A stretch of DNA of 64,000 nucleotides. It comes from Trypanosoma brucei (Eukaryota). The stretch is from contig CH464491.1 of assembly GCA_000002445.1 (NCBI GenBank), positions 1,472,001 through 1,536,000 on the forward strand, read 5' to 3'. Shown in pieces: positions 8,743 to 56,494 of the stretch. How positions within the stretch are numbered: position 1 is the first letter of the stretch; each line of letters starts with the position of its first letter. Position numbers and translations under genes: made by a program. The notes under the pieces are model-generated. The model had not been told where the DNA came from. It saw only the letters and a list, made by a program, of their open reading frames with translations, and did no database searches.

Positions 8743-11040
8743 ATGGATATCGTTAATAACAATGGTTCTTTTGTGACACGCACTACTGTTTCCCGTCCCA
8801 TTCCGTTTGAGCGCTATCGTAAACCGTGCATCGCCACTTACCCGAGAAGTGCCGTTTTTCTCAACAAGCGCCGCGCGAATGAGCTACATTGCAGTGGCGC
8901 ACCCGGAAATGAAAATGGAAGTGATGACAATGCGTCTTCCCTCGCCTTTGGTGAAGATAATGGAAAGAATGAGGCGGCAGACGATGACGACCCGCTGAAC
9001 ATCGACCCAGAAACAATGCTTTGCTCCGATGAGCAACTAAAACAAGTGCTTGCTCTCCGCTGGCGCGACGTTGGTCCTAACGGATGCGGGTTGCAGAACA
9101 TGGGAAATACATGCTTTATCAATTGCGTGCTTCAAGCGATAGCGTATACACCTGCTCTTTCGCAATACTTTTCGACTACTTTCCGTTCTCCACACACAGA
9201 CCGGGTGTTGAATGCGCCATTTGACTACGCTTATGCTTTGGGAGAGACAATTCGTAAAATACACACTCCTTCGAGAAACGCATATAAACCAACCGTAATC
9301 ATCAGCAACATTAAGGTGCTTTCACCACACTTTCGCCTTGGAGTGCAAGGTGACGCGCATGAATTTGCCGTGCACCTGCTGCATGCGTGCCACCGTTCAA
9401 TTTTGTTTAGGCAAGTGGGTTCTCGTAAGCTGCCGCAACACATCGAACAAACTTCGACATTACAGCGGATCGTTGGTGGTTACCTTCGTTCCACTGTCAC
9501 TTGGAGTAGGCGGGAGGAGATTCATTACTTGTTAAAGGAGGGGAACCTTCAGGAAGCAAGTAACTTAAAGATGAACGCGAATTCGCGCAAAAGTGATAGT
9601 GATGATGGACACAAGGAACTCATCTCCAACACATATGATCCATTTGTGACGCTTAGCCCAGAGATCTGTGGTCAAACGCTCGAACACTGTTTGTCCAAAC
9701 TCTGCGCGAAGGAAAGGTTGGAGGGACGGGTGTATATAACGCCTCGCGGCGTTACCGTGAACGCTACTAAACAATTTATGTTGCATAAGTTACCGAATGT
9801 TTTAATTATCCATTTGAAACGTTTCAATGAGTTCGGGGCGAAGGTTGGGAAGTTTGTACGATACCCGAAGATACTGAACGTGGGGCCCTTTTGCACGACC
9901 GATGGAACGTTGAAAAAGCTACGTAACCACAAGAGGAGGGGTTACAAGCCCTCGAATGGTCCCGCTAGTTGTGACAGCAGCATTTATAATAGCGAAGCGA
10001 GCAATAGGTCAGTTGAGTGCCTATACGAATTGAACGCCATTTGTGTCCACCAGGGTTCCTCGCTCTCCCATGGGCACTACTTCAGTGTTGTTCGCGCACG
10101 CAATGAATCGTGGATTGAGTGCAATGATGGCCACATTTCACATTGCAGCGAGGACCATGCCCTATCGCAGTCAGCGTATATGCTTTTCTACTCCCGAGTA
10201 GCGGAAAGCTCTGCCACGCCCGATATCAAGTGCAGTCGAGACAATCATACAACACACAGGGGCATGGAACTATCATCGGGTCGTGTTAAACCCTTTACGG
10301 GAAGTACACCACGTAAAATAGTGGGTGAGTGCCCTACTAGCGATGTAGGTCGTGAGTTAACCGACCAAGAGGCGCTACGACTTATTGGAAAGAAGAGAGA
10401 AGTACCCCAGCAGCAGTTAGTACAGACGAACGGTGAGAAGAGAGTTCAACATGTTGGTCTTCCAGCTAGGTTGAAAGGACTCAACACCAAGTCGTCATCA
10501 TCTACTGCTGTACGGGACAACAGCTCCAACAACTCACTGTGGAGTGAACAGGAGACGTGTTCATCTTCCTACGCTTCCTCGGCGGCTTTCGACAGAGAAG
10601 AGAATTCAGTTTGTTCTTCTCGGAAGAATAGTGCACCCGACAGATATTGCGGAATAGTGAAAGCCCTAAAGGTAAACGGGTCGAGGGATGTTGGAAAGGG
10701 AGGGACTTCTCCAACTGACCCTTTGGGGGGCCACAGAAGCAGCGTTGTGGGGGAGGAGGTGTTGAGGGCTATGGAAAAGCATAAGCTGGAGGCTCCATTG
10801 ACTGTTATGCGTCAACCCCATGCGCCAAAGTTTCGACAGCAAGTGCGAGATCCTTTGTGGGAGCAGGAGATGGATCGTGGCCGTACAAAGCGATCAAGGT
10901 TGAAGCGGGATGAAAGCACGGATGAGGAGAACAAATTTCAGAAGGCAGACATTGGGTTTGACAGCCGTGGAAGGCGTCTCCTGAACCAACGAAATGAACG
11001 AGCTAACGGCCGGAGTTTCGCCCACGGAAAATTCTCGTAA
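8743..11040 (+). CDS. Ubiquitin carboxyl-terminal hydrolase (USP/UBP family, C19 peptidase)
   Basis: Cys box GLQNMGNTCFINCVLQAIAYTP. His box HGHYFSVVRARNESWIECNDGHIS. A low-complexity tail follows the catalytic domain. Confidence 0.85.
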   Translation: MDIVNNNGSFVTRTTVSRPIPFERYRKPCIATYPRSAVFLNKRRANELHCSGAPGNENGSDDNASSLAFGEDNGKNEAADDDDPLNIDPETMLCSDEQLKQVLALRWRDVGPNGCGLQNMGNTCFINCVLQAIAYTPALSQYFSTTFRSPHTDRVLNAPFDYAYALGETIRKIHTPSRNAYKPTVIISNIKVLSPHFRLGVQGDAHEFAVHLLHACHRSILFRQVGSRKLPQHIEQTSTLQRIVGGYLRSTVTWSRREEIHYLLKEGNLQEASNLKMNANSRKSDSDDGHKELISNTYDPFVTLSPEICGQTLEHCLSKLCAKERLEGRVYITPRGVTVNATKQFMLHKLPNVLIIHLKRFNEFGAKVGKFVRYPKILNVGPFCTTDGTLKKLRNHKRRGYKPSNGPASCDSSIYNSEASNRSVECLYELNAICVHQGSSLSHGHYFSVVRARNESWIECNDGHISHCSEDHALSQSAYMLFYSRVAESSATPDIKCSRDNHTTHRGMELSSGRVKPFTGSTPRKIVGECPTSDVGRELTDQEALRLIGKKREVPQQQLVQTNGEKRVQHVGLPARLKGLNTKSSSSTAVRDNSSNNSLWSEQETCSSSYASSAAFDREENSVCSSRKNSAPDRYCGIVKALKVNGSRDVGKGGTSPTDPLGGHRSSVVGEEVLRAMEKHKLEAPLTVMRQPHAPKFRQQVRDPLWEQEMDRGRTKRSRLKRDESTDEENKFQKADIGFDSRGRRLLNQRNERANGRSFAHGKFS

Positions 11041-11487
11041 GCGGGTGTATATCTCGGAAGCAGCTACCCAACGTTATTTGCCTTTTGTTAATGTGGTTGA
11101 TGGCAAGGTTTTTATTTGTTAGTCGAGTGATGGCTGTAAGAGTTTGGAGGGGGGGGAGTCTCCCCCTTTTTTTTACTTGCAGTAGATGTGTCGCATCACC
11201 ACTATCAGTGTATATTTAATAATAGCTCGGTTATTGACTAAATGAGAAATGCTACATCGCTAAACGGACTAAGAAATATGTACAGTCATTCCGTTAACGA
11301 AGTCTGTATTTGCCTCTTTGCTCCTTTACCTACGTTTTCCATGATTGAAGGAAAGGGGAGCAAACTCGTCACAGCGTTCTGCTTGTATGTTGTTCTCTCC
11401 CTAATCCTTTACTGCTACGCGCCTCGTCGGTTGGTGCGTTGAAATCACATGGTATTCCGCTCGTCGAAGCATGTTCTCTCGCCTTCT

Positions 11488-11569
11488 TCACTGTCTTCCA
11501 TTTGTCGAAAACCACTACGTTTTAGAGTCTCACCACAAAACAAAAGTTTTTCTTTATTTACACACCAAG
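11488..11569 (+). promoter_or_regulatory. Poly-pyrimidine tract immediately upstream of the ATP synthase c start; candidate trans-splicing acceptor region
   Basis: ctctcgccttcttcactgtcttccatttgtcg...tttttctttatttacacaccaag precedes the ATG; a kinetoplastid SL-addition site needs a polyY tract followed by AG. Confidence 0.4.
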
Positions 11570-11926
11570 ATGATGCGCCGCCTTGCCCTTCAGTCCTCGC
11601 TCCGTCGCGTCACGCCCGCTGCCGTTTCTGTGATGACTCCTGCAAAAGTTACGAGCCCAATTGGCCACGCTATCGCCATTCGTCAGGCCTCCACTGTGGC
11701 CATATCTGTGCAGGGCCTGCATTACGTCGGTACGGGTCTCGCTGCCATTGCTCTTGCAGGTGTGGGTCTCGGCATCGGAACCATTTTTGGTAACCTGCTG
11801 GTCGCTTGTGCTCGGCAACCCAATTTGACAAAGATGCTCTTTAATTATGCAATTCTTGGTTTCGCGCTCACGGAAGCTATCGGCCTATTCGCACTCATGC
11901 TTGCGTTTCTGATGCTCTTCTCGTAG
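11570..11926 (+). CDS. Mitochondrial F-type ATP synthase subunit c (proteolipid). It is nuclear-encoded and carries a long N-terminal presequence.
   Basis: The C-terminal 75 aa, [70 protein letters not shown], form the canonical subunit-c hairpin with the conserved carboxylate (E in TEAIG). The ORF track start at 11471 is an upstream in-frame ATG lying in a pyrimidine tract. The MMRRLALQ start at 11570 gives a 118-aa precursor. Confidence 0.85.
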
Positions 11927-12694
11927 AGTAGTTAGTTGAAACAACGAGTTGCATGGGAAATGTGCAAAAAAAAAAAGTGGCGGAGGGGGGAGAGGGAGAG
12001 GGAAGTGGAGGTGCTGTTGGTTCTCGTTGGTGCATTTATGGTATTGTAACCAACATCCCCCACCGAGGCTGCCTTTTCTAGTTGTACCGTAATTGAATGA
12101 ATGAATAAATGGGGTCTGCATGCTGAGACGGGAAATTCTTATAAGTTTCACCGCGCCCACCCATGCGCAGCATACTTTTGTGTAATGAAGAATGCCACAA
12201 TGGAATGATTATCAACTGGGGGTGGTGGTGGTTGAAAGGTGAGTAGGAGTAAGAGGTGGAGTAATGAATGCAACAGAGCACACTCACCGTATTACGTTAA
12301 GTGGTGTTTCTGTAGTTTCCGCATAGGATAGGAAAGTAGGGATTTTCTCGCGTTTCTTTTGGTCGTTGGTGGCGTCAAATGGGTGTTACTTCGTTCGGTG
12401 TTGTTTTACGTCCCCATCTTCTTGGGTGTAATGAGTGTCTGCAGCGATAGTATATATTTTCCTGCATCCCTGTATTCATTACAATAATTTCTGGTATCAT
12501 TAGAAAAAAAAATCCTTCTCTTCCCCCATTATCTCTTTCTCGTGCGACCCGTTATTGCATTTGTTGATTTTTATTACAGCTGACAAAGTATTCAAAGCTT
12601 TTACGACAAACTGAGGGTGACTGTGGTGTTAGCAGTTTATACATTTTTTTTTTGACATCAAAACTACTGGCTGTTGTGGTAGACAGGAACAAAT

Positions 12695-24758: not shown

Positions 24759-24784
24759 ATATATATATATATATATATATATAT
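24759..24784. repeat. (AT)13 microsatellite
   Basis: atatatatatatatatatatatatat read directly. Confidence 0.95.
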
Positions 24785-25163
24785 GTCGTATTTGATTTAA
24801 TCCTCAACATTCTTCTTCCACTTGTATTTGTCATCACAAGGGAGGGAGAAGTGCAGTATCTTTTCCCTCTGCAGGGATACCTTCCCATAAACATACGGAT
24901 ATATAAATATATTTGTTTCACATATACATAAGGACGTAGTAGAGGTAGAAGAAGGTTCACAAGCACACCCACTTAACCAGAAAACCCGCCTACAGTTTTC
25001 CATCCCTGTGAGCAACGGTTTAGACATTTTTATTATAAGAAACTGGAGGAAAATATAAAACGGGAAGAGGGGTGAACAAAAGGAGGTGGTGAAGGGAGAA
25101 TAGATATAGTTTGCAAAAGTAGAGAGTGAAAGTGCCCGTTTAACAGTTGAAGGTAAGAGAATC

Positions 25164-30326: not shown

Positions 30327-30813
30327 TTTGAGGGAAGAACTTATTGAGGGGATGGGGGAGGAAGTGGATTATCATCGGTTGGGGTTTACTGGTAAAAAGC
30401 ATGTCGCTTAGAAGGAGTATGGTTTTCCTCATCTTTTTTGTTTCTTTTTGTCAGTGTTTTTTCCCCCCTTCATTTTCATTTTTTTTCTTTTTTCATTCAG
30501 CCATTTTGGCATTGTTGTTGTCATAAGAACGCATTACCCCTCTGTAAGTTCGCTTACTTCCTAATGTTATACCCACCACTAGACAGTTGTATGCTCCAAC
30601 ACAACATGAAAGAAAAAGAGAAAAAAAAAAGAAACAACGCACAAATACACGCGCAAACACAAACACATACTTCTACATATACAACTGCATCTTTGCGCGT
30701 GGAATTAAAATTTCAGGTTTTCTCAACACGCGCAACGCCGTACTTTCCACACGAGTGGTTAATGTAATTACATTGCATTAACTGCTTTGATGTTGCTTCT
30801 GCCCGTTTATCTT

Positions 30814-30840
30814 TATATATATATATATATATATATATAT
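30814..30840. repeat. (TA)13 microsatellite
   Basis: tatatatatatatatatatatatatat read directly. Confidence 0.95.
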
Positions 30841-31610
30841 CTTTTCATTTATTTGTTTTGCCATGTTTCTTCTTTTTTTTTTCTTATTTTACCACACATC
30901 ACTATTTTGATATTGAATTGGGCCCTGCTTTTCTTCTTCTTCTTTAATGGACATGACGGAGTTAAAGCAACTGAGGGTCAAAAATATTTATGGGAAAGAA
31001 GGACAATAGAGAGAAAGAAAAAAGAAAGGGATAAAGAGGAAGAGAAAAGGAACGTGGTTTTCGTATGTTGAAGGAATTATGTGGGACGAAAAACGGTTCA
31101 GATGATGTTGAGTGTGAGTGTGTGTGCAACTAATAAAGCAAGAAAGTGGTAAGGGTTGCTGAAGCATTTATGTTTTATATTACTTATTTATTTATTTCTT
31201 CTTTTTTTTCTTCTTTATTTGAATAGCATGCGGTTCGTTTTTTTTTCTTTTTTGTGTGTATGTGTGACTTTAGGAGGTACGTCTCACCAGTCGCTTTCCC
31301 ATCCGTCACTCGTTCCATATGAGTTCACTCACAAGGTTTTTTTTTGCGTTTGTGACATATCGTTTCAGCTTTTTCTTTTCTTTTCTTTTCTTTTTTCGTT
31401 TCTGCGGGTTAACACTTTCGTTGATAGTGTCCTTTCATCAAAGCCAGTTGTTGCCCAAGGGCGTCAGGAACATAATAAGCAAAAAAAATAAAAATAAAAT
31501 AAAATTGGAAAACGACGAACGAAAAAAATGAACGCTGACACTTGAAGCAAACCCCATAACTGTCAAAAGTACAAAAGCAGTAATCGGGCACTGCTATATA
31601 TTTCTTCTTT

Positions 31611-39018: not shown

Positions 39019-39045
<27 letters not shown>

Positions 39046-39046
39046 A
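39019..39046. repeat. (TG)13 microsatellite
   Basis: tgtgtgtgtgtgtgtgtgtgtgtgtgt read directly. Confidence 0.95.
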
Positions 39047-39391
39047 TTGGGATGTGGGGTAGGGAGGGGGTGATCAAACACAGGAAGAAGAAACAGTAAC
39101 ATAAAACGTAACATTGAGACGGCTGCGAAAATGAAATTTGCTGGCACGTTATTCATTATCATCATAAAACACATTACAGTTGTGTGTGTTGTCCTTCTCT
39201 GTCATTCCCAGCGCAGGGAAATAGCAACATATGCATATGTGACTATGAACGTACTAATGAATAACCGCATTTGGCGTTTTCACATGTAGATATATTTGTC
39301 TTTTGACTAACAAATAAACTCCAAAACTTTGTGGTTTGTATTTACTTTAGTAAAGGAAGGAAAACTCTTTGAACAGAAAAGATTGTGGAAG

Positions 39392-46131: not shown

Positions 46132-46926
46132 TGGGAATCGAGTCACATGTGTTCCCAGTCTGTGTCGTTCTAGCTCACAGGGGTTTGAGGTTGTTAATTG
46201 AAAAATATTGTGATGCCATTTATCTGTTGTTCAAAAAAAAATTAATTGACTATTCAAATGGAGTGATGTCGCGAGCTTTTACGCGGTCAAACTAAACATA
46301 ATATATTGATGCTGTCGGCTTCCAGCTACCGTCCAACTGATTATTCAATTCTTTTCTTTGGTGCGGTAATTACCGATTTTTGGGTCTCCTTTTTTTTTTT
46401 AAATTATTCATTCTTGTGGGCGCTCGTTCGTGTTTACTTACCAATTTCAAAAAAAAAAAAACGAGGCTCATCCGAATGACGTGAGGTGTGAGTAAGCCAA
46501 AAGGGAATGAAGTGGGGGTGACACTGCTTTTGTGCCTTTGTTTTTGGACGGAAAGGAGTTGAGTTGGCTGCATGTTATCGTTCCTTGGCGACGATGTTGC
46601 ACCCGGGAGAAACGTTTTTTTTGTTTGGCTCTGGCGCTGCACATTTTGTTTCATATTCATCCTGATTCCCCAACCTACTAAATCATATTCGACGAATTAA
46701 GCAAGGCATTGTGATGCCACTAGCAATATTCTGGTACTACTCGTTGCCTACTGTTGTGTTAACTGTTCTGTACATGCCATTTGTATTCGGTGTTTACTTC
46801 AGGTACATCAACTTTTGTTGCTTGATTTTTATTCCTCATGCACTTTCTTTATTATTTGTCTTTCACACCTTTGATATTTGACGGTTGTATTCACTGCTGG
46901 TTGGACTTGTTGGAAGGAGCTCCGAT

Positions 46927-49900
46927 ATGCCAGTTTTTCGTAATTCCACTGGTTTTGTCACTCCCTTTCGAATTCCGAGTGCGGTAAGCAGAGAAGACTC
47001 ATCGTCAACCACAACAACACCTCGCTCTTCTACTGTGTTGCAACGACAAAAGCGGGAGGTGGTGTACCCAGATTCCAGAGGCAGTTCAGGCAATGAAGTA
47101 GTTGCAGCGCGTCTAGCTAAACGCGCAAACATTGATTACCATCAACCAATAAAAGAGAACAAAACCTTTCCCAACCATGGAGGGCCCAATACTGAAGTTC
47201 ACGATGATAACGCCAGTGAGAAGACGACAGAAGAAGGCCCAGTTTCGTCGAAGCCGTCTGTTCCTCCGACAAGTGGTGTGCAACAGCAACAACCACAGGA
47301 AACGGCACCTGTTTCTACGGATGCTGCGGGAGCGGATGAAGGAAGTGTTGAGAAAAGTACCGAAATTGTTTCTCTGTATCCGGTAAGTCCCCATGGCTGT
47401 CTTTATTTTCAAGTGGAAACAGAGGCGGCCACCCGTCACGACTCAGTCGGTATTATTGTCATCAACACGGAACTTCTGGGTGTCATGATGTACGACTGTG
47501 CAGGAAGACAATATGGCAACAGACCAGAACCCGGCTACCCTATATCGGAAGAAGATATGAAGAGCGCTAAAGCCGGTGCCAAACTTAAGGTGGGGCAAAA
47601 AAGTGTACTTCTCGTTACTGCGCTATTGGAGGAATCATTCCGAAGCGGTGAGTTCTTCCTTCGGTCTGAGCACCTTTCTCGTAAGAGGGAAGAGGACAAA
47701 AAGGCGAAGGAAGAAGCAGCTGCAGCAGCTGCTCCTCGGCGAGTAGTGCCAAAAATGACATTGGGTGAAACTTTACTAGGGAATATGTTTGCCTCACCCA
47801 TTTTCCGTAAGCGACCGCGTGAGGGTCAAACTGGGTTCGTTGTTCCAATTGCTGGACGTGTGAAACCTGGAACCAGCGGAATTGGTGCTGAGTTGAAGTC
47901 TTTGCACGATCCTGACCGAGAAGGAGCAGTGGTACTTTTTCATGCTCACTACAAACGGGACGTTAATGGCCGTCTGCAAGTTTCGGTTGTTGTGGATCCG
48001 ATTATTGGTGACAAACTTCGACCGCATCAGCGAATCGGGGTGAAGTTTCTTTTCGATTGCATTACGGGTCAGCGGATGCCCGGCTACCACGGTGCCATCT
48101 TAGCAGATGAAATGGGTCTTGGAAAAACCATTCAAACAGTTGCTACCGTTTATACTTGTCTCAAACAAGGGAGGTATGGGGTACCCACAGCACGAAAGTG
48201 TTTGATCGTTACCCCATCTTCCCTAGTGAAGAATTGGTGCAACGAGTTTGACAAATGGTTGGGTGTGGGGGCTGTTAAATATCTCTCTATATCGGAGTCC
48301 ACACCAAAAGGCGATCGCATCATTTCTCGCTTCGATGGCGACGGTGATGTTCTCGTCATTTCGTACGATCAGCTACGCAAATACATCAGTCGCATTTCGA
48401 CGCTGAAGTCGGTTGAGTTAGTTGTCTGCGATGAGGGACACAAACTGAAAAATGCAGAGGTGAAAACAACGAAAGCAGTTGATATGCTCCCTACGCGGAA
48501 CCGCATCATCCTTAGCGGTACACCCATTCAAAACGACTTATCAGAATTTCATGCCATGGTGGGGTTTGTTAACCCCGGTATCTTAGGCACTCGTGATGTC
48601 TTCGGTCGCGTATTTGAGGAACCCGTGACGCTTGGACGGGACCCCGACTGTCCTGAGCATCTCCGGATGTTGGGAGCCGACCGCGCACATTACCTTTCCA
48701 CTTTAACCCAGCGCTTCATTCTTCGGCGCACGCAATCCATTAATGAGTCGTACCTCCCACCGAAGGTTGATCTTACAGTGTTCGTACGACTGGGTGAAAA
48801 GCAGCGCGAGGCGTATGAGAAGATTTCTGCTATCGTGGAGAGCTCGCAGTGTACCCCGCTTGTTCTGATCTCGTCATTGAGGAAACTTTGTAATCACATG
48901 GATCTCTTCCACGAGGCGGTGGTTAGCTCCAATGGGGATCAGAAGGGTAAGGGTGGTGGAATTCCCAAATCGGTGCTTCCGAAAGGCTACAAGGTTGGGA
49001 CTCTTTCCCAAGAGGTGGGCAGCAAGATGCAGTTTGTTTCCCTCATGCTAGACGAGTTATGCAGTAATGGGGATCACGACAAACTAGTGATCGTTTCGAA
49101 CTTCACTCAAACACTGGACGTCATTGCTGCCATGTGTAAAACCAAAAAGATTAGTTTCTTTCAGCTCGACGGTAGTATGCCCATCAAAAGGCGGCAGGAG
49201 GTGGTTGATCGGTTCAATGTCCCCAATTCTCAAGAGATTGTTTTCTTGCTTTCTTCCAAGGCTGGTGGAGTAGGCCTCAATCTTATTGGAGCGAATCGGC
49301 TAATTCTATTTGATCCTGACTGGAACCCTGCTAACGATGCACAAGCTATGGGTAGAGTGTGGCGTGATGGACAGAAGAAGCGTGTCTTCATATATCGTCT
49401 TTTAAGTACCGGTTCAATTGAGGAGAAGATTTACCAGCGACAGGTCAGTAAGCAAGGCCTCTCTGCAAACGTTGTTGATATGCAAACAGACTCAAAGCAA
49501 CACTTTACACTGGAAGAACTTCGGTCACTTTTTCGTTTTCGGAGTGACACCGACTCAGAAACACACGATCTTCTGCATTGCACGAGTTGTGAAGCGGTTA
49601 TGAATTCAGGGGGTGGCAGGGCCTCTGGAAGAGCAAGATTAAAAGAGCAGGAAGCACCAATGAAGTTCCGCCCTGTAACTGTGAAAAAGAGCGGACCCCG
49701 TATGGACGAACTAAAAGGGTGGAGGCATTTCTCTCAGTGTGCAACTTTCCCCTTGGACAAAGTTATACGTGCCATAGCCACGGCAGCACCGGGCATCTGC
49801 AGTTTCATCTTTGCTGATGAGCGTGACAACACCGCGACGACCGCATCGAAAGATGGCAAGGGAGGTAAGAGTGGTGGTGCCAAGGTTGAACCCGTGATGA

Positions 49901-50040
49901 AAGTGGAGCGGGCTTTTGCTGAAGACGAGGAAGCAATTATATGCATGAGCCAAACAGAGGAGATGGTAAGAGAGTCTCAACTTGAGATTGAGATCCATGA
50001 GGATGATGATGATGATGATTATCCCTCTGGTGACGATTAG
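46927..50040 (+). CDS. RAD54: RAD54 (SNF2-family DNA repair/recombination translocase)
   Basis: LRPHQRIGVKFLFDC...ILADEMGLGKTIQTVATV. DEGHKLKN. ILSGTPIQNDLSEFHAMVGFVNPGILG. SSKAGGVGLNLIGANRLILFDPDWNPANDAQAMGRVWRDGQKKRVFIYRLLSTGSIEEKIYQRQ is canonical RAD54. The track start 46885 is TTG; the first ATG is at 46927. Confidence 0.9.
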   Translation: MPVFRNSTGFVTPFRIPSAVSREDSSSTTTTPRSSTVLQRQKREVVYPDSRGSSGNEVVAARLAKRANIDYHQPIKENKTFPNHGGPNTEVHDDNASEKTTEEGPVSSKPSVPPTSGVQQQQPQETAPVSTDAAGADEGSVEKSTEIVSLYPVSPHGCLYFQVETEAATRHDSVGIIVINTELLGVMMYDCAGRQYGNRPEPGYPISEEDMKSAKAGAKLKVGQKSVLLVTALLEESFRSGEFFLRSEHLSRKREEDKKAKEEAAAAAAPRRVVPKMTLGETLLGNMFASPIFRKRPREGQTGFVVPIAGRVKPGTSGIGAELKSLHDPDREGAVVLFHAHYKRDVNGRLQVSVVVDPIIGDKLRPHQRIGVKFLFDCITGQRMPGYHGAILADEMGLGKTIQTVATVYTCLKQGRYGVPTARKCLIVTPSSLVKNWCNEFDKWLGVGAVKYLSISESTPKGDRIISRFDGDGDVLVISYDQLRKYISRISTLKSVELVVCDEGHKLKNAEVKTTKAVDMLPTRNRIILSGTPIQNDLSEFHAMVGFVNPGILGTRDVFGRVFEEPVTLGRDPDCPEHLRMLGADRAHYLSTLTQRFILRRTQSINESYLPPKVDLTVFVRLGEKQREAYEKISAIVESSQCTPLVLISSLRKLCNHMDLFHEAVVSSNGDQKGKGGGIPKSVLPKGYKVGTLSQEVGSKMQFVSLMLDELCSNGDHDKLVIVSNFTQTLDVIAAMCKTKKISFFQLDGSMPIKRRQEVVDRFNVPNSQEIVFLLSSKAGGVGLNLIGANRLILFDPDWNPANDAQAMGRVWRDGQKKRVFIYRLLSTGSIEEKIYQRQVSKQGLSANVVDMQTDSKQHFTLEELRSLFRFRSDTDSETHDLLHCTSCEAVMNSGGGRASGRARLKEQEAPMKFRPVTVKKSGPRMDELKGWRHFSQCATFPLDKVIRAIATAAPGICSFIFADERDNTATTASKDGKGGKSGGAKVEPVMKVERAFAEDEEAIICMSQTEEMVRESQLEIEIHEDDDDDDYPSGDD

Positions 50041-50666
50041 TATCAGTTAGTGAAATATTTGTCGTTAGGTTACTTCTGGGTCAACTCATACGTGCGCCCA
50101 GTTGCTCCACTGCTAAGTTTTCACAAGGGGTGCTATTGCGTACGTGCGTCACCGACACACGTGCTCTATATTAGTACGCAGGGTGAAGAAACTGGGGAAA
50201 TAAAGGCGTTATGCCAATGCGCCCGGGGGAATCATCGTATTGCATTACCTTGTTGTGTTTCATTTGCTTTCTTTTTATCTGCGTCAAATCCCCAAAAGCA
50301 AGAGGATGGGGATGCCGCACAAAACTTTATTTGCCAAGTCATAACTTTAGTCTTTCCATAGTTCTCACGCGCACATTCACATTTGTTTGTCCCCTCCTCT
50401 CGTTCCAATGCCAGACTTACTGCCTAGGTGCTGTGGGGAGGCAGTACATACGAGGTTCAACTCTTTCTAATTATGTTTCCGCACATCTACTAACCTACCC
50501 CTCTCCAAAAGAAGAAAAAAGACTAATACGTCATTTTAGATTTTAATCTTTTGTACCTTGGGCACCAGAGGAACACGGACAGTGTAAAAGAAGGTGAATA
50601 ATCATTTATATCTATATCACCACGCAAGCGATACGTATTCGTCTGTACACAGATTTAGCTACTGAC

Positions 50667-52361
50667 ATGACGCATCAATCAACTGATGTGTCCGGGCCGT
50701 GTGGCGCTGCCGTTCTAACAAATCGTTATCTCAACAGAGGAACCGCCTTTACCATTGAAGAGCGCAAACAGTTGCATATTCTCGGGCAGCTTCCTACAGT
50801 TGTTGAAACCCTGGAGCAGCAGGTGAAGCGTGCGTACAATCAGATGAAGAGCTGTGGCAAGCCCATCGATCAGTACCAACAGCTTGCTGCACTTCACGCT
50901 ACAAATACAACCCTTTATTACGCGACCATCTTTGCGCACCTTGAGGAAACACTTCCCATTATTTACACACCTACAGTGGGAGAGGCTTGCCAACGGTACA
51001 GCAGCCTTTTGTTTCGTGAGCGCGGGCTGTACTTATGCCGCACGTACAAGGGTATGTTCCGTACCATCATGCGCGATTCAGGGTACGAGAATCCGAAAGT
51101 TGTTGTAATAACTGATGGTTCTCGCATCTTGGGTCTTGGTGACCTCGGAGCAAACGGTGTGGGCATCAGCATTGGCAAATGTTCACTATATGTTGCCGGC
51201 GCCGGAATCAATCCAAAGAATGTTGTCCCCGTTGTACTTGACGCAGGGACAGATAATGCGGCTATGTTGAGTGACGATAATTATATCGGTGTGCGCCAAA
51301 AACGCCCCTCTGACGAGGATTTCTACGCTTTGTTGGATGAGTTCATGGAGGCTGCGAGTGAAGCATGGCCGGAAGCCGTTATACAATTTGAGGACTTCAG
51401 CAACAACCATTGTTTTGACATGCTTGAGCGGTACCAAAACAAGTATCGATGCTTCAATGATGATATTCAGGGAACTGGTGCTGTAATTGCTGCAGGCTTC
51501 CTAAATGCTGTGAAGCTTTCAAAGGTGGATCCCCTTGACCATCGTATTGTTGTGTTTGGCGCTGGTTCCGCTGCTATTGGTGTGGTGGACAATATTGCGG
51601 AGCTCACTGCACAACTGTACAACCTCAAGTCCGATGATGTGAAGAAGACATTTTATCTCGTTGACACAAAGGGTCTCGTTACCACTACGCGTGGCGACAA
51701 GTTGGCCTCCCATAAAGTGTCACTGGCTCGTACCGATGTCTCTGCAGAAGATTCAGCGAAATTGAAGACGTTGGAAGACGTTGTAAATTTTGTGAAACCG
51801 ACAACGCTCCTCGGACTTGGCGGCGTGGGCCCGGTATTCACGGAGAGCATGGTGAAGGGTATTCTAAACAACACGAAACGGCCAATTATATTTCCACTTT
51901 CCAACCCCACCAGCAAATCTGAGATCACCGCAGACAACGCCTTCAAGTGGACCGATGGTAAGGCAATTGTTGCCTCAGGAAGTCCCTTCCCGCCCACAAC
52001 TCTGAACGGCAAGACATACAAGGCATCCCAAGGTAACAATTTGTATGTTTTCCCCGGTATTGGACTTGGTTGTGCCATCGCGAAACCGGCGTATATTCCC
52101 AATGATTTACTTATTGCCGCTTCTCGCTGCCTTAACGGCCTTGTTTCAAAGGTGGGGCTTGAAGATGGATCTCTGTACCCTCCTCTGAGTGATATCCACA
52201 ACATTTCTGCCAACATTGCTACCGATGTCATTATGGAAGCACAGCGCTTGAAGATTGACAACAACTCTTCGTTGCCCCGCACACGAGCGGAGTTGATGGA
52301 TTATGTGAAGCATGCCATGTGGAAGCCGGAGTATCCAACAGGCATTCTCCCTGACGAGTAA
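50667..52361 (+). CDS. Malic enzyme (NADP-dependent), upstream paralogue without an N-terminal targeting extension
   Basis: IYTPTVGEACQ, FNDDIQGTGAV and GAGSAAIG (NAD(P) binding). Full-length 564 aa. Confidence 0.9.
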   Translation: MTHQSTDVSGPCGAAVLTNRYLNRGTAFTIEERKQLHILGQLPTVVETLEQQVKRAYNQMKSCGKPIDQYQQLAALHATNTTLYYATIFAHLEETLPIIYTPTVGEACQRYSSLLFRERGLYLCRTYKGMFRTIMRDSGYENPKVVVITDGSRILGLGDLGANGVGISIGKCSLYVAGAGINPKNVVPVVLDAGTDNAAMLSDDNYIGVRQKRPSDEDFYALLDEFMEAASEAWPEAVIQFEDFSNNHCFDMLERYQNKYRCFNDDIQGTGAVIAAGFLNAVKLSKVDPLDHRIVVFGAGSAAIGVVDNIAELTAQLYNLKSDDVKKTFYLVDTKGLVTTTRGDKLASHKVSLARTDVSAEDSAKLKTLEDVVNFVKPTTLLGLGGVGPVFTESMVKGILNNTKRPIIFPLSNPTSKSEITADNAFKWTDGKAIVASGSPFPPTTLNGKTYKASQGNNLYVFPGIGLGCAIAKPAYIPNDLLIAASRCLNGLVSKVGLEDGSLYPPLSDIHNISANIATDVIMEAQRLKIDNNSSLPRTRAELMDYVKHAMWKPEYPTGILPDE

Positions 52362-52503
52362 TGTAAGGGACGTGAAGGGAGCGATTGACACTCCGTGCTT
52401 ACACCAATATCGGTGAGCGAAGCATCCCTTTTACGAAGAAATTTCAGGTGAACACCCTTTTATATACTAAAAACGTGTGTCTTGTATATCTTCTACAGAC
52501 AAA

Positions 52504-52505
<2 letters not shown>

Positions 52506-52537
<32 letters not shown>
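52506..52537. repeat. (AT)16 microsatellite in the intergenic region downstream of the first malic enzyme gene
   Basis: atatatatatatatatatatatatatatatat read directly. Confidence 0.95.
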
Positions 52538-52540
<3 letters not shown>

Positions 52541-54131
52541 CGTTTCATGTTTTGTTTATTCATTTCGTCTTCATTTTACGTTCGCAGCAGCATTTTTTTT
52601 GTTTATGTTCTCTATTTTTTCTTTTATATTTTATTCGTCGCCTCGTTTCTGAGGTCTTTCGCCACTTTTACCCTTTGTTGGGGGCTGTTTGCAGTATGGT
52701 GAAAGTCTTTTACTGCTAGGATAATGAAATTGTGTATCGCATAACTGCGTGTAGAAAACGAACGGAATAAATTGGACATGAGCCAGTTACCGAGGTTTAT
52801 GAAAGAATTAACCACAGTTGTGGAGTGCCGTATACAAATGATGAAACGTATCGAAACGTGAAGAGAGAAGAAGTAGGCACGAGAGGGGATAAATTTTTTT
52901 TTTGTGATATGAAGGAGACGTTCGTAAGTTTTTCTCTTTTTTAGCCTATGAGCGTGTGTGCCGCAGCACAGGCTCTAGAGTTTCGTGAAGTATGAGGGTT
53001 CGAATGAGTTCCCGTACTTTTTCATATTTGAGAAACATTTTTTTTTTCATATGTGTCTGGTGGTTCATATTTGTTAGCCACTTTTTCCCCCTTCCTATGT
53101 TTATGGTGAACGCGTAAATAACAATTACTGTTGTAATCGCTCATCACACCGTGGCGGGTTGCGGTAGCCAAACTTCTCACGAAGAGGGTGGAGCTGCGGG
53201 GAGCGGAGGATTAATTGATAACGTCATGATAGTAAACAGGAGACACTTTTTTCATCAGTGTAAAATTCACGGTTCCGCAACAATACACGCCGAAGAGCCT
53301 CTACTTTTTTTACTGCAGTAATTAATTGCTGAGGAAAAGCAAATGCTTTTATATTGCAGGGAAAGGGGGGGATGCAAGGGGGAAAATATTGATATTGCAA
53401 TCTTTTTCTTTTTAGGGGGGGGGGAGATGCGGTGTAAGAGCGTAGAGGGACAGAGGTACATCAATGAAACACCAACTTTCAATGCGCTGTGGTTGCTTCT
53501 GTTGTGTCGGATTATGTTCGTCTGTTAATTGAGTTGGATGTGGTGCCTGTGTGTGTCGGGTTTTGAATTACAACTTCCAGATGCTCCTGTGCTTCATTGT
53601 CGATATATGTTTTCATTTATTTCTATCTTTATTTTTGTTTTGTATGTTTTGCCGTGTGTGCGTTGTGATTCTGTGATGAACTCATAGTTTTTGAAGAGAT
53701 AGGGTGGGCTCAGTGGGAAAATATTATATTCAAAATAAACTAGGAGGAAGAAATAACTTAAGGAGAAAGCACAATCAACGAGGAGGAAGACGTTCAGAAA
53801 CGCAAAAGACACACGAGCAGATCCAATATCATCATATCGCTTATCACTACGAGAATAAACTGTCACTTTTATTTGTTCCCCCCTATTAACGTTGAGCGAA
53901 AGGAGAAAAGTAAACAAATTGAAAGGGAGTAAGTTGTCATTTGGATGACGAAACTACACTTGTTTTTGGCATCCCTCTTCAAATTTTTTTCCACTTTCGT
54001 TTTATGATTTAAAGAATTGTTATAAAAAACAAGATAAGGACGTGTTGACGAGTACAAACAAAAAAGGAGGAAACTAAGGTTACTTAAGCAAGTCATACTC
54101 TGCTTTGAAGAAAAATCAGGTAACAGGTGCG

Positions 54132-55847
54132 ATGTTGGGTCGTTCGTTTAAACTTTGTGTTTCCACAAACGCCCGTGGGATCGATTTTCTCCGCAACCGT
54201 TTCACCAATAAGTCAACCGCGTTCACACGGAAGGAACGAGAACACCTCGGTGTTGTTGGGCTACTTCCACCCGCGGAGGAGACACTTGACGACCATGTCA
54301 AGCGCTGCTGGACACAATTGACCCATTTGGAGTACCCAATCAACAAATACCAACTCTTACAGGGAATTCTCAGCACTAATACTGTTCTTTATTACAAGAT
54401 TGTGGAAACCTACATGAAGGAAACACTTCCAATTATTTACACACCTACAGTGGGAGAGGCTTGTCAAAAATACGGAAACATCTTTCAAAGAGACCATGGA
54501 CTCTACATAAGCATGAAGGAACGTGGGGTGATCCGGCAGACCCTTGAAAACCTTCGGAAACCTGAGGTTGAAGTTATTGTAATAACTGATGGTTCTCGCA
54601 TCTTGGGTCTTGGTGACCTCGGAGCAAACGGTATGGGCATCAGCATTGGCAAATGTTCACTATACGTTGCCGCCGGTGGAATTAACCCGAGCCGCATCCT
54701 ACCAGTTATGATGGACGTGGGGACAGATAATGAAGGACTTCGTGCGGATCCTCAATATCTTGGTTTGCGCCAAAAACGCCCCTCTGACGAGGATTTCTAC
54801 GCTTTGTTGGATGAGTTCATGGAGGCTGCGAGTGAAGCATGGCCGGAAGCCGTTATACAATTTGAGGACTTCAGCAACAACCATTGTTTTGATATGCTTG
54901 AGCGGTACCAAAACAAGTATCGATGCTTCAATGATGATATTCAGGGAACTGGTGCTGTAATTGCTGCAGGCTTCCTAAATGCGATCGAGGCAAGCGGCAT
55001 TCCTGCAGAGGATCATCGAATAGTGTTTTTTGGCGCTGGTTCCGCTGCGACAGGTGTGGCCACCTGCATTGTTGACTTGGTTGCCGCAAAGTACAAAAAG
55101 ACGTTCGCAGAAGTGCAGAATAACGTATATCTTCTTGATACCAAGGGTGTCATAACAACCACGCGTGGCGACAAGTTGGCACCACACAAGGTCCCGTGGG
55201 CCCGCACTGATATTTCAGCCGAGCAGAGCAAGTCGCTTTCCACATTGGTGGATGCTGTGAAGTTTGTAAAACCAACAGCGCTGATCGGCCTTGGAGCCCA
55301 AGGTGGTGTTTTCACTGAGGATATTCTAAAGTTTATGCGATCATACTGCGAGAAGCCTGTGATTTTTGCACTTTCCAACCCCTCAAGCAAAGTGGAGGTT
55401 ACTCCAGACAACGCCTTCAAGTGGACCGATGGTAAGGCAATTGTCGCAACTGGCAGTCCCTTCCCGCCCACAACTCTGAACGGCAAGAAATATGAGGCAT
55501 CCCAAGGTAACAATTTGTATGTTTTCCCCGGTATTGGACTTGGTTGTGCCATCGCGCAGCCGAAAAATATCCCACAGGAGGTACTCCAAACAGCGGCCGT
55601 CACCCTCAGTAAGTTAGTGGATCGTAATGTCATGGCTTCTGAGGGAGCACTGTATCCATGTATTGATGAAGTGCGTGAAGTGTCGAAACAGGTGGCAGCT
55701 GCTGTGATTGAAAAGTTGCAAGAGATGGGTTTGGCAAAGGAGGGGTTGCCCACAAGCAAAGGGGAACGATTGAAATTGGTGGAGGAACGGATGTGGACAC
55801 CCAAATATCTTGAACCGGAATATTACCTGTCGAAGAAGCTGGAGTAA
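54132..55847 (+). CDS. Malic enzyme (NADP-dependent), downstream tandem paralogue with an N-terminal mitochondrial-presequence-like extension
   Basis: IYTPTVGEACQ, FNDDIQGTGAV and GAGSAATG. The N-terminus MLGRSFKLCVSTNARG is basic and hydroxylated. The track start 54105 is TTG; the ATG is at 54132. Confidence 0.88.
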   Translation: MLGRSFKLCVSTNARGIDFLRNRFTNKSTAFTRKEREHLGVVGLLPPAEETLDDHVKRCWTQLTHLEYPINKYQLLQGILSTNTVLYYKIVETYMKETLPIIYTPTVGEACQKYGNIFQRDHGLYISMKERGVIRQTLENLRKPEVEVIVITDGSRILGLGDLGANGMGISIGKCSLYVAAGGINPSRILPVMMDVGTDNEGLRADPQYLGLRQKRPSDEDFYALLDEFMEAASEAWPEAVIQFEDFSNNHCFDMLERYQNKYRCFNDDIQGTGAVIAAGFLNAIEASGIPAEDHRIVFFGAGSAATGVATCIVDLVAAKYKKTFAEVQNNVYLLDTKGVITTTRGDKLAPHKVPWARTDISAEQSKSLSTLVDAVKFVKPTALIGLGAQGGVFTEDILKFMRSYCEKPVIFALSNPSSKVEVTPDNAFKWTDGKAIVATGSPFPPTTLNGKKYEASQGNNLYVFPGIGLGCAIAQPKNIPQEVLQTAAVTLSKLVDRNVMASEGALYPCIDEVREVSKQVAAAVIEKLQEMGLAKEGLPTSKGERLKLVEERMWTPKYLEPEYYLSKKLE

Positions 55848-56464
55848 AGCCGAGGGCCTCTGTCGTTTAACTCATTGGTGTTGCATATTCTCTTTTATTT
55901 TTCTTTCTTATCTTTTTTCTTCGACCTCCGTGCTTTATTATGTTTCCGTTGTTGTGATAGTTTTTTTTGTTATTTATTTGAATGTGAGCCAATGTAAGAC
56001 ACGCGGTGATCTTTCACATGGTGACTGTTTGTTTCTTCTCACTTCATTTTTATCCGACATTTCTTTCGATAATTTGCGTCGATTGATCCGTCTGTTTGCT
56101 TCCAAACACAAAACTAATGGTTAGTAACAATAATAGCAATAGTGACAGACACAAAGAGGGGAGGGAGCGTTTTCAAGGGGGGCTGGGGTGAATTGAACAG
56201 GTAGGAGGGAGAATGTGGGGAATACGATAGGCGGATATTACATTGATTTGTTCAACCGCCAAGCAATAGATTTACTTTTTATTACTATTATTGTTTTATT
56301 ACTATACCAATATCTTTTTCCCCCCATATCTACAATACAATTCCTTGGTGGACATCGATTCCCACAATAAAGTATGCACACGCCACCGCATTTTCTTTTG
56401 TTTCGCAACGACTGTGTTCACGTGCGAAGTTAGTTCCGCACCCCTTCCTGCACGTACACACTAA

Positions 56465-56494
56465 CACGCACACACACACACACACACATATATA
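56465..56494. repeat. (CA)11 followed by (TA)3 compound microsatellite
   Basis: cacgcacacacacacacacacacatatatat read directly. Confidence 0.9.

Follow-up and report, generated by a model that had tools for sequence, protein, structure and literature searches.

Near-identical coding tracts shared by the tandem malic enzyme genes of Trypanosoma brucei are consistent with recurrent interlocus gene conversion across kinetoplastids

Introduction

In the tandem PGK A/B/C array of Trypanosoma brucei, gene conversion has given rise to chimaeric or mosaic copies (Le Blancq et al. 1988, as summarised in PMC1855330; see also the review PMC7729029), and chimaeric copies attributed to putative partial gene conversion were reported in 21/47 T. 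brucei tandem arrays analysed (Jackson 2007, PMC1855330). Shared internal sequence is known as well from FRDg and FRDm2, where a block of 1450 bp is 100% identical, and from AQP2 and AQP3, which share repeats of ~80 bp; homologous recombination uses these blocks as substrates (PMC8065229).

The tandem genes for cytosolic (MEc) and mitochondrial (MEm) malic enzyme (ME) are an undescribed example of this classical trypanosome phenomenon, seen previously at PGK, FRD and AQP2/3. As in the PGK array, isoenzyme genes lie in tandem within one polycistron, their products serve different compartments (glycosome and cytosol for PGK, mitochondrion and cytosol for ME), and the targeting parts stay distinct. 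PGKB and PGKC, however, are almost wholly homogenised (99.5% identical in Leishmania), whereas the ME pair has 57% amino-acid identity and shares four short islands. As with FRDg/FRDm2 and AQP2/AQP3, the ME genes are tandem paralogues of differing localisation with an internal block of identity that could act as a substrate for homologous recombination, although the ME tracts (≤217 nt) are shorter than the FRD block. Crossover or deletion leading to a single chimeric gene under selection is documented at the FRD and AQP2/3 loci; at the ME locus, by contrast, it is non-crossover conversion that we infer, and no deletion chimera of ME is known.

The ME pair is array 123 in Table S3 of PMC1855330; the word ‘malic’ is absent from the main text of that paper and, in the supplementary files examined, the pair appears only as this catalogue row. 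The searchable literature yielded no comparison of ME genes across kinetoplastids, and an earlier remark on the shared sequence is possible (Allmann et al. 2013; Leroux et al. 2011).

Results and Discussion

The malic enzyme locus

The window, a stretch of 64,000 nucleotides, comes from chromosome 11 of T. brucei brucei TREU927. MEc (Tb927.11.5440) occupies positions 50667-52361 of the forward strand and encodes 564 amino acids, matching XP_828619 exactly; MEm (Tb927.11.5450), at 54132-55847 on the same strand, encodes 571 amino acids and is an exact match to XP_828620. Both open reading frames are as given in a preliminary description made from the sequence. Each protein is a full-length malic enzyme, with both Pfam domains far above the gathering threshold of ~23 bits for PF00390 and PF03949: MEc scored 213.8 bits for PF00390 (amino acids 78-257) and 279.5 bits for PF03949 (amino acids 267-525), and MEm scored 235.5 and 285.9 bits, respectively. 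MEc also matched PDB 6w29, one of a series of structures of a close homologue, at E = 4e-278. As proteins, MEc and MEm are ordinary members of the malic enzyme family, and the interest of the pair lies in gene evolution rather than in the enzyme.

In a codon alignment the two genes agreed at 1120/1689 nucleotides (66%), slightly below the earlier figure of about 70%, and their proteins were 57% identical. Only the downstream copy has a basic, presequence-like N-terminus, MLGRSFKLCVSTNARG (54132-54179, forward strand), a putative mitochondrial presequence; the localisation itself is taken from PMC6522824, which places Tb927.11.5440 in the cytosol and Tb927.11.5450 in the mitochondrion, and from an L. 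major preprint (10.64898/2026.07.14.735955). The proposal that the genes form a cytosolic/mitochondrial isoform pair agrees with the localisations in PMC6522824. In all taxa, downstream orthologues start with ML or MF followed by basic and hydrophobic residues and lack acidic residues at the N-terminus, while upstream orthologues have a polar or acidic start. An SNF2/RAD54-like helicase reading frame upstream (46885-50040, forward strand), which lies outside the conversion, provides a synteny anchor: the order helicase, MEc, MEm is kept in T. b. gambiense, T. equiperdum, T. vivax, T. cruzi, L. pyrrhocoris and L. infantum.

Four in-register tracts shared by MEc and MEm

The near-identical DNA blocks reported previously within these diverged paralogues were recovered as four in-register tracts, collinear and separated by a single offset of 3474 nt, all on the forward strand. 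Tract 1 (MEc 50944-50989, MEm 54418-54463) spans 46 nt with 1 mismatch, encodes ..ETLPIIYTPTVGEAC and holds a 32-nt exact run (50958-50989) encoding IIYTPTVGEAC. Tract 2 (MEc 51097-51198, MEm 54571-54672) is 102 nt long with 3 mismatches and encodes VITDGSRILGLGDLGANG.GISIGKCSLYVA; it had been placed at 51101-51194 and 54574-54670, coordinates a few bases off and out of register. Tract 3, the core (MEc 51292-51508, MEm 54766-54982), comprises 217 nt with 1 mismatch (51419/54893), encodes RQKRPSDEDFYALLDEFMEAASEAWPEAVIQFEDFSNNHCFDMLERYQNKYRCFNDDIQGTGAVIAAGFLNA and spans the junction between the two Pfam domains. Tract 4 (MEc 51931-52082, MEm 55405-55556) is 152 nt long and encodes DNAFKWTDGKAIVA.GSPFPPTTLNGK.Y.ASQGNNLYVFPGIGLGCAIA; it had been noted at 51931-52083 with about 6 mismatches, where we count 8. 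Exact runs between MEc and MEm measured 127, 89, 62, 56, 40, 34, 32 and 31 nt. Among degenerate codons at which the amino acid was identical, the longest run of identical codons was 41, a length reached in 1/20000 permutations, and the clustering of identical codons is far beyond chance.

Silent sites inside and outside the tracts

The tracts hold several malic enzyme motifs, which we take to be YTPTVG, GKxxLY, FEDF, NDDIQGT and QGNN, and the core (..VIQFEDF..FNDDIQGTG..) is presumably the metal-binding catalytic core. Purifying selection on highly conserved catalytic motifs, possibly aided by codon bias and without any exchange of DNA, might be invoked, and the tracts are indeed the most conserved segments of the protein, with many columns invariant over 19 kinetoplastid sequences. 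Silent sites, however, tell against this. At degenerate codons specifying identical amino acids, the same codon was used in 152/159 cases within tracts compared with 71/162 outside (Fisher p = 1.9e-26), and 4-fold sites matched between MEc and MEm at 55/59 positions inside tracts and 23/68 outside; synonymous and 4-fold sites are thus ~95% identical in the tracts against 34-44% elsewhere. Well-conserved protein stretches outside the tracts lack such identity in the DNA; that at 51678-51737, for instance, matches at 16/20 amino acids but at only 8/20 third positions. The NG86 dS between the T. brucei paralogues was 0.03 in the core and 1.6 in the flanks, the reverse of tract synonymous sites no closer than the rest, which the preliminary description had held to be the mark of selection acting alone.

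The same contrast was seen in other species. Paralogue NG86 dS in the core was 0-0.03 (T. brucei, T. vivax, T. melophagium and T. cruzi), compared with 0.8 to saturated in the flanks, whereas orthologue dS in the core ranged from 0.97 to saturated among Trypanosoma species. In keeping with this, orthologues had no exact run >26 nt in the core, where paralogues had runs of 127-331 nt. Because the silent sites of orthologues are saturated in the core, purifying selection and nucleotide-level constraint are ruled out as the source of the identity, and we give selection without DNA exchange next to no chance of being correct. For GC-biased conversion, no consistent rise in GC3 was seen between flanks and core (core and flank values, respectively: T. 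brucei 0.50 and 0.53; T. vivax 0.82 and 0.60; T. cruzi MEc 0.68 and 0.77).

The same core across kinetoplastids

Nine genomes were compared (TREU927, DAL972, T. equiperdum, T. vivax, T. melophagium, T. cruzi CL Brener, L. pyrrhocoris, L. infantum and B. saltans). The core was near-identical between own-species paralogues in 9/9, with the background of third-position identity being raised in Leishmania and Leptomonas by their high GC3 (0.8-0.97), and the tract being weaker in Bodo saltans (126 nt, 4 mismatches, exact runs of just 30-38 nt). Over a 111-nt shared core, the nearest neighbour of every gene was its own-species paralogue (p = 0-0.036, against 0.08-0.17 to other species), whereas in the flanks nearest neighbours were mostly orthologues. 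In neighbour-joining trees of the core, all 7 species pairs had 100% bootstrap support and the split between cytosolic and mitochondrial copies had 0%; in the flanks that split, Bodo included, received 96% and species pairs 0-3%. Core and flank phylogenies therefore conflict, as they do under interlocus gene conversion. The protein core gave a matching picture, with lineage-specific residues common to both paralogues in T. congolense (for which the evidence of concerted evolution comes from protein only), T. rangeli, T. cruzi and T. vivax, and with 1-6 differences between paralogues compared with 8-17 between orthologues. Paralogues of T. cruzi, T. vivax, L. infantum and L. pyrrhocoris are near-identical over the region of tract 2 as well, and those of Bodo show a weaker form of this. 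Conversion had at first been called ‘recent’: conversion itself is supported, but it was no one-off event, the central tract having been affected repeatedly across Kinetoplastea.

Two further explanations were considered. The first is that the identity is an assembly artefact, a collapse or chimeric consensus of similar paralogues. There is precedent for trouble at this locus, as the upstream ME gene was absent from the first L. major assembly, for which flanking repetitive SIDER elements, known sites of short-read assembly collapse, were blamed (preprint 10.64898/2026.07.14.735955). The mosaic, however, is present in nine independent assemblies, the T. brucei tracts (≤217 nt) fall below the length of a Sanger read and have unique sequence on both sides, and the tracts carry single differences specific to individual genomes, which would not be expected from a collapsed consensus. 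The collapse of which the preliminary description had warned is excluded by recovery of the same mosaic in three T. brucei-group and six other kinetoplastid genomes, and artefact is accordingly a most improbable reading.

The second is that the genes were duplicated recently and independently in each lineage, with fast-diverging flanks and the core left as the remnant of a young duplicate. Fresh tandem duplication does occur here, as T. melophagium has three identical MEc copies. Yet the flanks separate upstream from downstream copies with the bootstrap support given above, synteny and the type of N-terminus are conserved, and paralogue dS in the flanks is 0.7 to saturated; lineage-by-lineage duplication is consequently so poor an account of the data that we set it aside.

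The limits of the core differed in their constancy. The 3′ boundary was nearly constant (51499-51511 in T. b. brucei MEc coordinates) in T. brucei, T. melophagium, T. cruzi, L. infantum and Bodo, and coincides with abrupt protein divergence, MEc continuing after FLNA with VKLSKVDPL and MEm with IEASGIPAE; the 5′ boundary varied from 51291 to 51399. In T. vivax the tract is much longer (exact runs, 331 and 199 nt) and reaches 300 nt further; in both copies the extended tract is clearly closer to the mitochondrial gene (74-76% identity to T. brucei MEm, compared with 61-62% to MEc). For T. brucei, diagnostic amino acids offered 2 informative sites, too few to call the direction of conversion.

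A near-constant 3′ boundary in five taxa, and persistence of the tract in all Kinetoplastea sampled, might suggest that the core has a function at the nucleotide level, for instance as an RNA structure or as a shared regulatory or small-RNA target, which would have to be identical in both mRNAs of a cell and would co-evolve under selection, with conversion as just the means. Against this, silent sites are not conserved between species, the 5′ boundary shifts by the range given above, with T. vivax 300 nt longer, and the drop in protein similarity at the 3′ boundary alone accounts for that boundary mechanically. We consider such an element very unlikely.

Changes within the T. brucei group

Consensus assemblies of T. 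b. brucei, T. b. gambiense and T. equiperdum were compared for evidence at closer range. In tract 4, T. b. gambiense MEc has 5 changes in 10 nt (51971-51980), 5/5 of which are the MEm bases, while the MEm sequence opposite is unchanged in all three genomes; conversely, T. equiperdum MEm has three clustered changes (55489, 55493 and 55494), 3/3 of them to MEc bases. At site 51314/54788, both gambiense copies have T and both copies of brucei and equiperdum have C; at 51419/54893, brucei has C/T, gambiense C/C and equiperdum T/T. Tract 1 of T. b. gambiense is without mismatch, its MEm having the MEc base at 54431. Both genes are kept, with unchanged spacing, in all three genomes. These few clustered sites, read from consensus assemblies, point to non-reciprocal transfer, in which the recipient would gain donor bases while donor and copy number stay unchanged; T. 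brucei being diploid, a haploid consensus may mix alleles, and some of the apparent differences between subspecies are perhaps allelic. As clustered changes copying the paralogue occur in both genes, conversion appears to be ongoing and bidirectional.

Proposed mechanism and significance

Taking these comparisons together, MEc and MEm very probably represent an ancient tandem pair subject to recurrent interlocus gene conversion over short, in-register tracts. The duplication is older than the split between bodonids and trypanosomatids, with the cytosolic copy upstream and the mitochondrial copy downstream. Strong protein constraint on catalytic motifs could keep the DNA similar enough to act as a recombination substrate; each conversion would then restore the identity of the tract and make the next conversion easier, so that the tract would be self-perpetuating. 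Conversion tracts may end where the proteins diverge sharply because mismatches stop the extension of heteroduplex, and homogenisation of isoform-specific residues may also be selected against at tract ends, both the mechanistic and the selective cause of the boundaries being compatible with these data. The pathway might be RAD51-dependent or short-substrate repair with short-patch mismatch correction. Minimal efficient processing segments in T. brucei are ~100 and ~31 bp, with an exponential penalty for mismatches and with short-patch mismatch repair (PMC1904282), and the lengths of the exact runs between MEc and MEm are consistent with these substrate sizes.

A stronger proposal, towards which we lean with some reserve, is that the central 120-220 nt may be a self-perpetuating conversion island, homogenised continuously since before bodonids and trypanosomatids diverged. 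If so, one module evolves as though it were a single-copy gene inside two ancient and independently evolving isoenzyme genes in every kinetoplastid lineage, which would make this an instance of partial concerted evolution with unusual longevity and stability of position, and the island could give rise to deletion chimeras like those of the FRD and AQP2/3 loci. In T. brucei, recombination across the 217-nt block could plausibly delete 3474 bp and leave a chimeric MEc-MEm gene.

The ME pair offers a clean natural case of gene conversion alongside functional divergence, the targeting and isoform-specific regions having been independent since before Bodo and the trypanosomatids diverged while the catalytic core evolves in concert within each species. 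Trees and orthology assignments drawn from the ME core will be misleading; any RNAi fragment, guide RNA, PCR primer or mapped short read that falls within the tracts will match both isoforms; and inhibitor-binding residues encoded by the tracts will be the same in both isoforms of any one species.

The intergenic spacer

Repeats found in a search of the locus were all in-register coding tracts, with no non-coding homology, and no larger tandem repeat scoring ≥80 was found within the window. The spacer between the genes (52362-54131, forward strand), comprising the MEc 3′ UTR, the MEm 5′ UTR and processing signals, is unique, as stated beforehand, having no copy in the rest of the locus. It contains the (AT)16 microsatellite also reported earlier (52506-52537; TRF period 2, 16 copies, 100% match), and similar (AT)n runs are carried by other spacers of the window.

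Tandem malic enzyme genes with near-identical internal tracts

Two plus-strand open reading frames, MEc (Tb927.11.5440, 50667–52361) and MEm (Tb927.11.5450, 54132–55847), exactly match XP_828619 (564 aa) and XP_828620 (571 aa), recorded as ‘malic enzyme, putative’ from T. brucei brucei TREU927 and lying on one 5.26-Mb contig. Both malic enzyme Pfam domains were present full-length in each gene, and MEc matched the PDB 6w29 malic enzyme series (E = 4e-278); published work assigns Tb927.11.5440 as the cytosolic and Tb927.11.5450 as the mitochondrial isoform (PMC6522824).

The genes share 57% amino acid and 66% nucleotide identity (codon alignment). Four near-identical tracts, each 3474 nt apart between the two genes, coincide with the enzyme's best-conserved motifs: tract 1 (MEc 50944–50989/MEm 54418–54463; 46 nt, 1 mismatch), tract 2 (51097–51198/54571–54672; 102 nt, 3 mismatches), tract 3, termed the core (51292–51508/54766–54982; 217 nt, 1 mismatch at 51419/54893), and tract 4 (51931–52082/55405–55556; 152 nt, 8 mismatches). 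Exact runs measured 127, 89, 62, 56, 40, 34, 32 and 31 nt. The blocks are thus as reported in the preliminary description, whose coordinates and counts were off by a few bases at most. It was also correct in calling the spacer unique with an (AT)16 repeat: a repeat search found no homology between the spacer and the rest of the locus, and the (AT)16 lies at 52506–52537.

Gene conversion, which that description had proposed for these blocks, is supported by synonymous sites, which were far more alike inside the tracts than outside. Where both proteins have the same amino acid, the codon was identical in 152/159 cases inside the tracts compared with 71/162 outside (Fisher p = 1.9e-26), a difference that speaks against purifying selection as the only cause; four-fold degenerate sites matched at 55/59 and 23/68 positions, respectively. 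The longest run of identical codons, 41, was reached by 1/20000 permutations. Outside the tracts, at 51678–51737, 16/20 residues are identical, yet only 8/20 third positions are. Protein is therefore conserved there without conservation of DNA, and purifying selection on protein cannot explain the tracts.

Concerted evolution of the core across kinetoplastids

Orthologous loci were compared from T. b. gambiense (L001), T. melophagium (L002), T. vivax (L003), T. cruzi (L004), Leptomonas pyrrhocoris (L006), the free-living bodonid Bodo saltans (L007), Leishmania infantum (L008) and T. equiperdum (L009). Gene order (SNF2/RAD54-like helicase, MEc-type, MEm-type) was kept wherever the contig extended far enough, and own-genome paralogues were near-identical over the same central region in 8/8 of these genomes. 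The longest exact paralogue runs in or around the core were 211 nt in T. b. gambiense and T. equiperdum, 331 and 199 nt in T. vivax, 179 nt in T. cruzi, 170 nt in L. infantum, 149 nt in T. melophagium and 105 nt in L. pyrrhocoris, and the core tract of B. saltans was 126 nt with 4 mismatches; no exact run between orthologues of different Trypanosoma species exceeded 26 nt. Recurrence in nine independent assemblies, together with genome-specific differences inside the tracts, refutes assembly collapse as the source of the identical blocks.

Core dS (NG86) was 0–0.03 between paralogues in five Trypanosoma genomes and approximately 1 to saturated between orthologues, which, with the codon counts, refutes pure purifying selection. 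That the core might be a functional nucleotide element is unlikely, given that comparison between species shows no conservation at its silent sites and that its 5′ boundary is variable.

Within the 111-nt core common to all taxa, the nearest neighbour of each gene was its own-genome paralogue (p = 0–0.036, versus 0.08–0.17 to any other species); for the flanks (ME coding sequence outside the core) nearest neighbours were mostly orthologues. Core and flank NJ trees were in complete conflict, with 100% bootstrap support for 7/7 species pairs in the core, and in the flanks 96% for a split of all upstream from all downstream genes and 0–3% for species pairs. The flank split refutes recent independent duplication in each lineage. 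T. congolense and T. rangeli too, at the protein level, have lineage-specific core residues common to both paralogues. Tree conflict and shared residues together indicate a duplication predating the bodonid/trypanosomatid split, with the core homogenised separately in each lineage. The same catalytic-core tract is thereby in concerted evolution in every kinetoplastid examined, which adds to the preliminary description.

Recent exchange within the T. brucei group

Few sites differ among the three T. brucei-group genomes, and many of these are tract positions at which one gene has taken on the base of its paralogue. Five substitutions clustered in 10 nt of T. b. gambiense MEc (51971–51980) are 5/5 to the MEm base and replace Ser with Thr; clustered changes in T. 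equiperdum MEm (55489, 55493 and 55494) are 3/3 MEc bases. MEm bases occupy 51296–51297 in T. b. brucei MEc, but not in the other two genomes, and MEc bases occupy 54431 and 54665 in T. b. gambiense MEm. At 51314/54788 both T. b. gambiense copies carry T, and both copies in the other two genomes C; at the sole core mismatch, brucei reads C/T (MEc/MEm), gambiense C/C and equiperdum T/T. Paralogue-copying accounted for 8/12 MEc differences between brucei and gambiense. These differences thus indicate conversion that is recent, bidirectional and in short patches, with the core still exchanging among T. brucei subspecies.

Mechanism and tract boundaries

Judged from the alignments, transfer between MEc and MEm is non-reciprocal, in register and confined to coding tracts, and would proceed by homologous-recombination repair between the tandem copies. 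Minimal efficient processing segments in T. brucei are ~100 bp (main pathway) and ~31 bp (short-substrate pathway), and recombination there shows an exponential mismatch penalty and short-patch mismatch repair (PMC1904282); the ME exact runs (127 down to 31 nt) are compatible with those lengths. Protein constraint would hold conserved motifs similar enough for recombination, each conversion resetting the tract to identity and so sustaining the island.

In most taxa the core ends 3′ at 51499–51511 (T. b. brucei MEc coordinates), where identical protein sequence (..FLNA) gives way to unrelated residues, VKLSKVDPL for MEc and IEASGIPAE for MEm. A boundary here is expected if mismatches limit heteroduplex extension, and selection against homogenised isoform-specific parts may be an added factor. 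The limit is not absolute, because the T. vivax tract is long.

Tandem isoenzyme gene conversion is classical in T. brucei, with PGK the standard example (PMC1855330; review PMC7729029). FRDg/FRDm2 and AQP2/AQP3, like the ME pair, have internal identical blocks, there drivers of recombination (PMC8065229). The ME pair is array 123 in the supplementary catalogue of Jackson (2007) (PMC1855330), whose main text has no occurrence of ‘malic’; a 2026 preprint on L. major enzymes (10.64898/2026.07.14.735955) describes the genes as tandem without mention of conversion. Within the searchable literature, nothing relevant linked malic enzyme in trypanosomes to either gene conversion or concerted evolution. 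The pair is a newly recognised case of a known process, the observation confirmed and the interpretation supported.

Species peculiarities and other features

The T. vivax converted region is much longer, aligning to 51291–51822. Its extension 3′ of the core (51510–51824) resembles the mitochondrial gene in each of the two copies, which makes T. vivax MEc a larger chimera with an MEm-derived NAD(P)-binding segment. In GCA_021307395.1 (L003:4561–6254) the MEc frame is broken near L003:5520 and called as two fragments, probably an assembly indel because other T. vivax records (P0009, P0012) have intact 564-aa proteins.

T. melophagium has three MEc copies (L002:3005–9686), identical in coding sequence at 2498 bp spacing, with a single MEm downstream (10742–12463); tandem amplification or unequal crossover therefore affects the locus too. 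On L. major chromosome 24 the upstream ME gene was missing from the original assembly and recovered in the revised one, a gap put down by the authors to flanking SIDER repeats (10.64898/2026.07.14.735955); the shared tracts may have contributed.

Throughout the 64-kb window GC skew is positive and ORFs lie on the plus strand, as expected of one polycistronic unit. A 111-aa ORF between the helicase gene and MEc (50211–50546), annotated in T. b. gambiense (L001:2086–2421), is doubtful as a gene because it had no Pfam hit. (AT)n microsatellites occur in several intergenic spacers (24759–24832, 30807–30896 and 52506–52537); besides these and the ME tracts, a repeat search of the 64 kb found no notable repeats. 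Low-complexity (TG)n/(CA)n-rich arms at 39023–39072 and 56439–56488, 17 kb apart, scored as an inverted repeat (76%); here two microsatellites have probably matched by chance.
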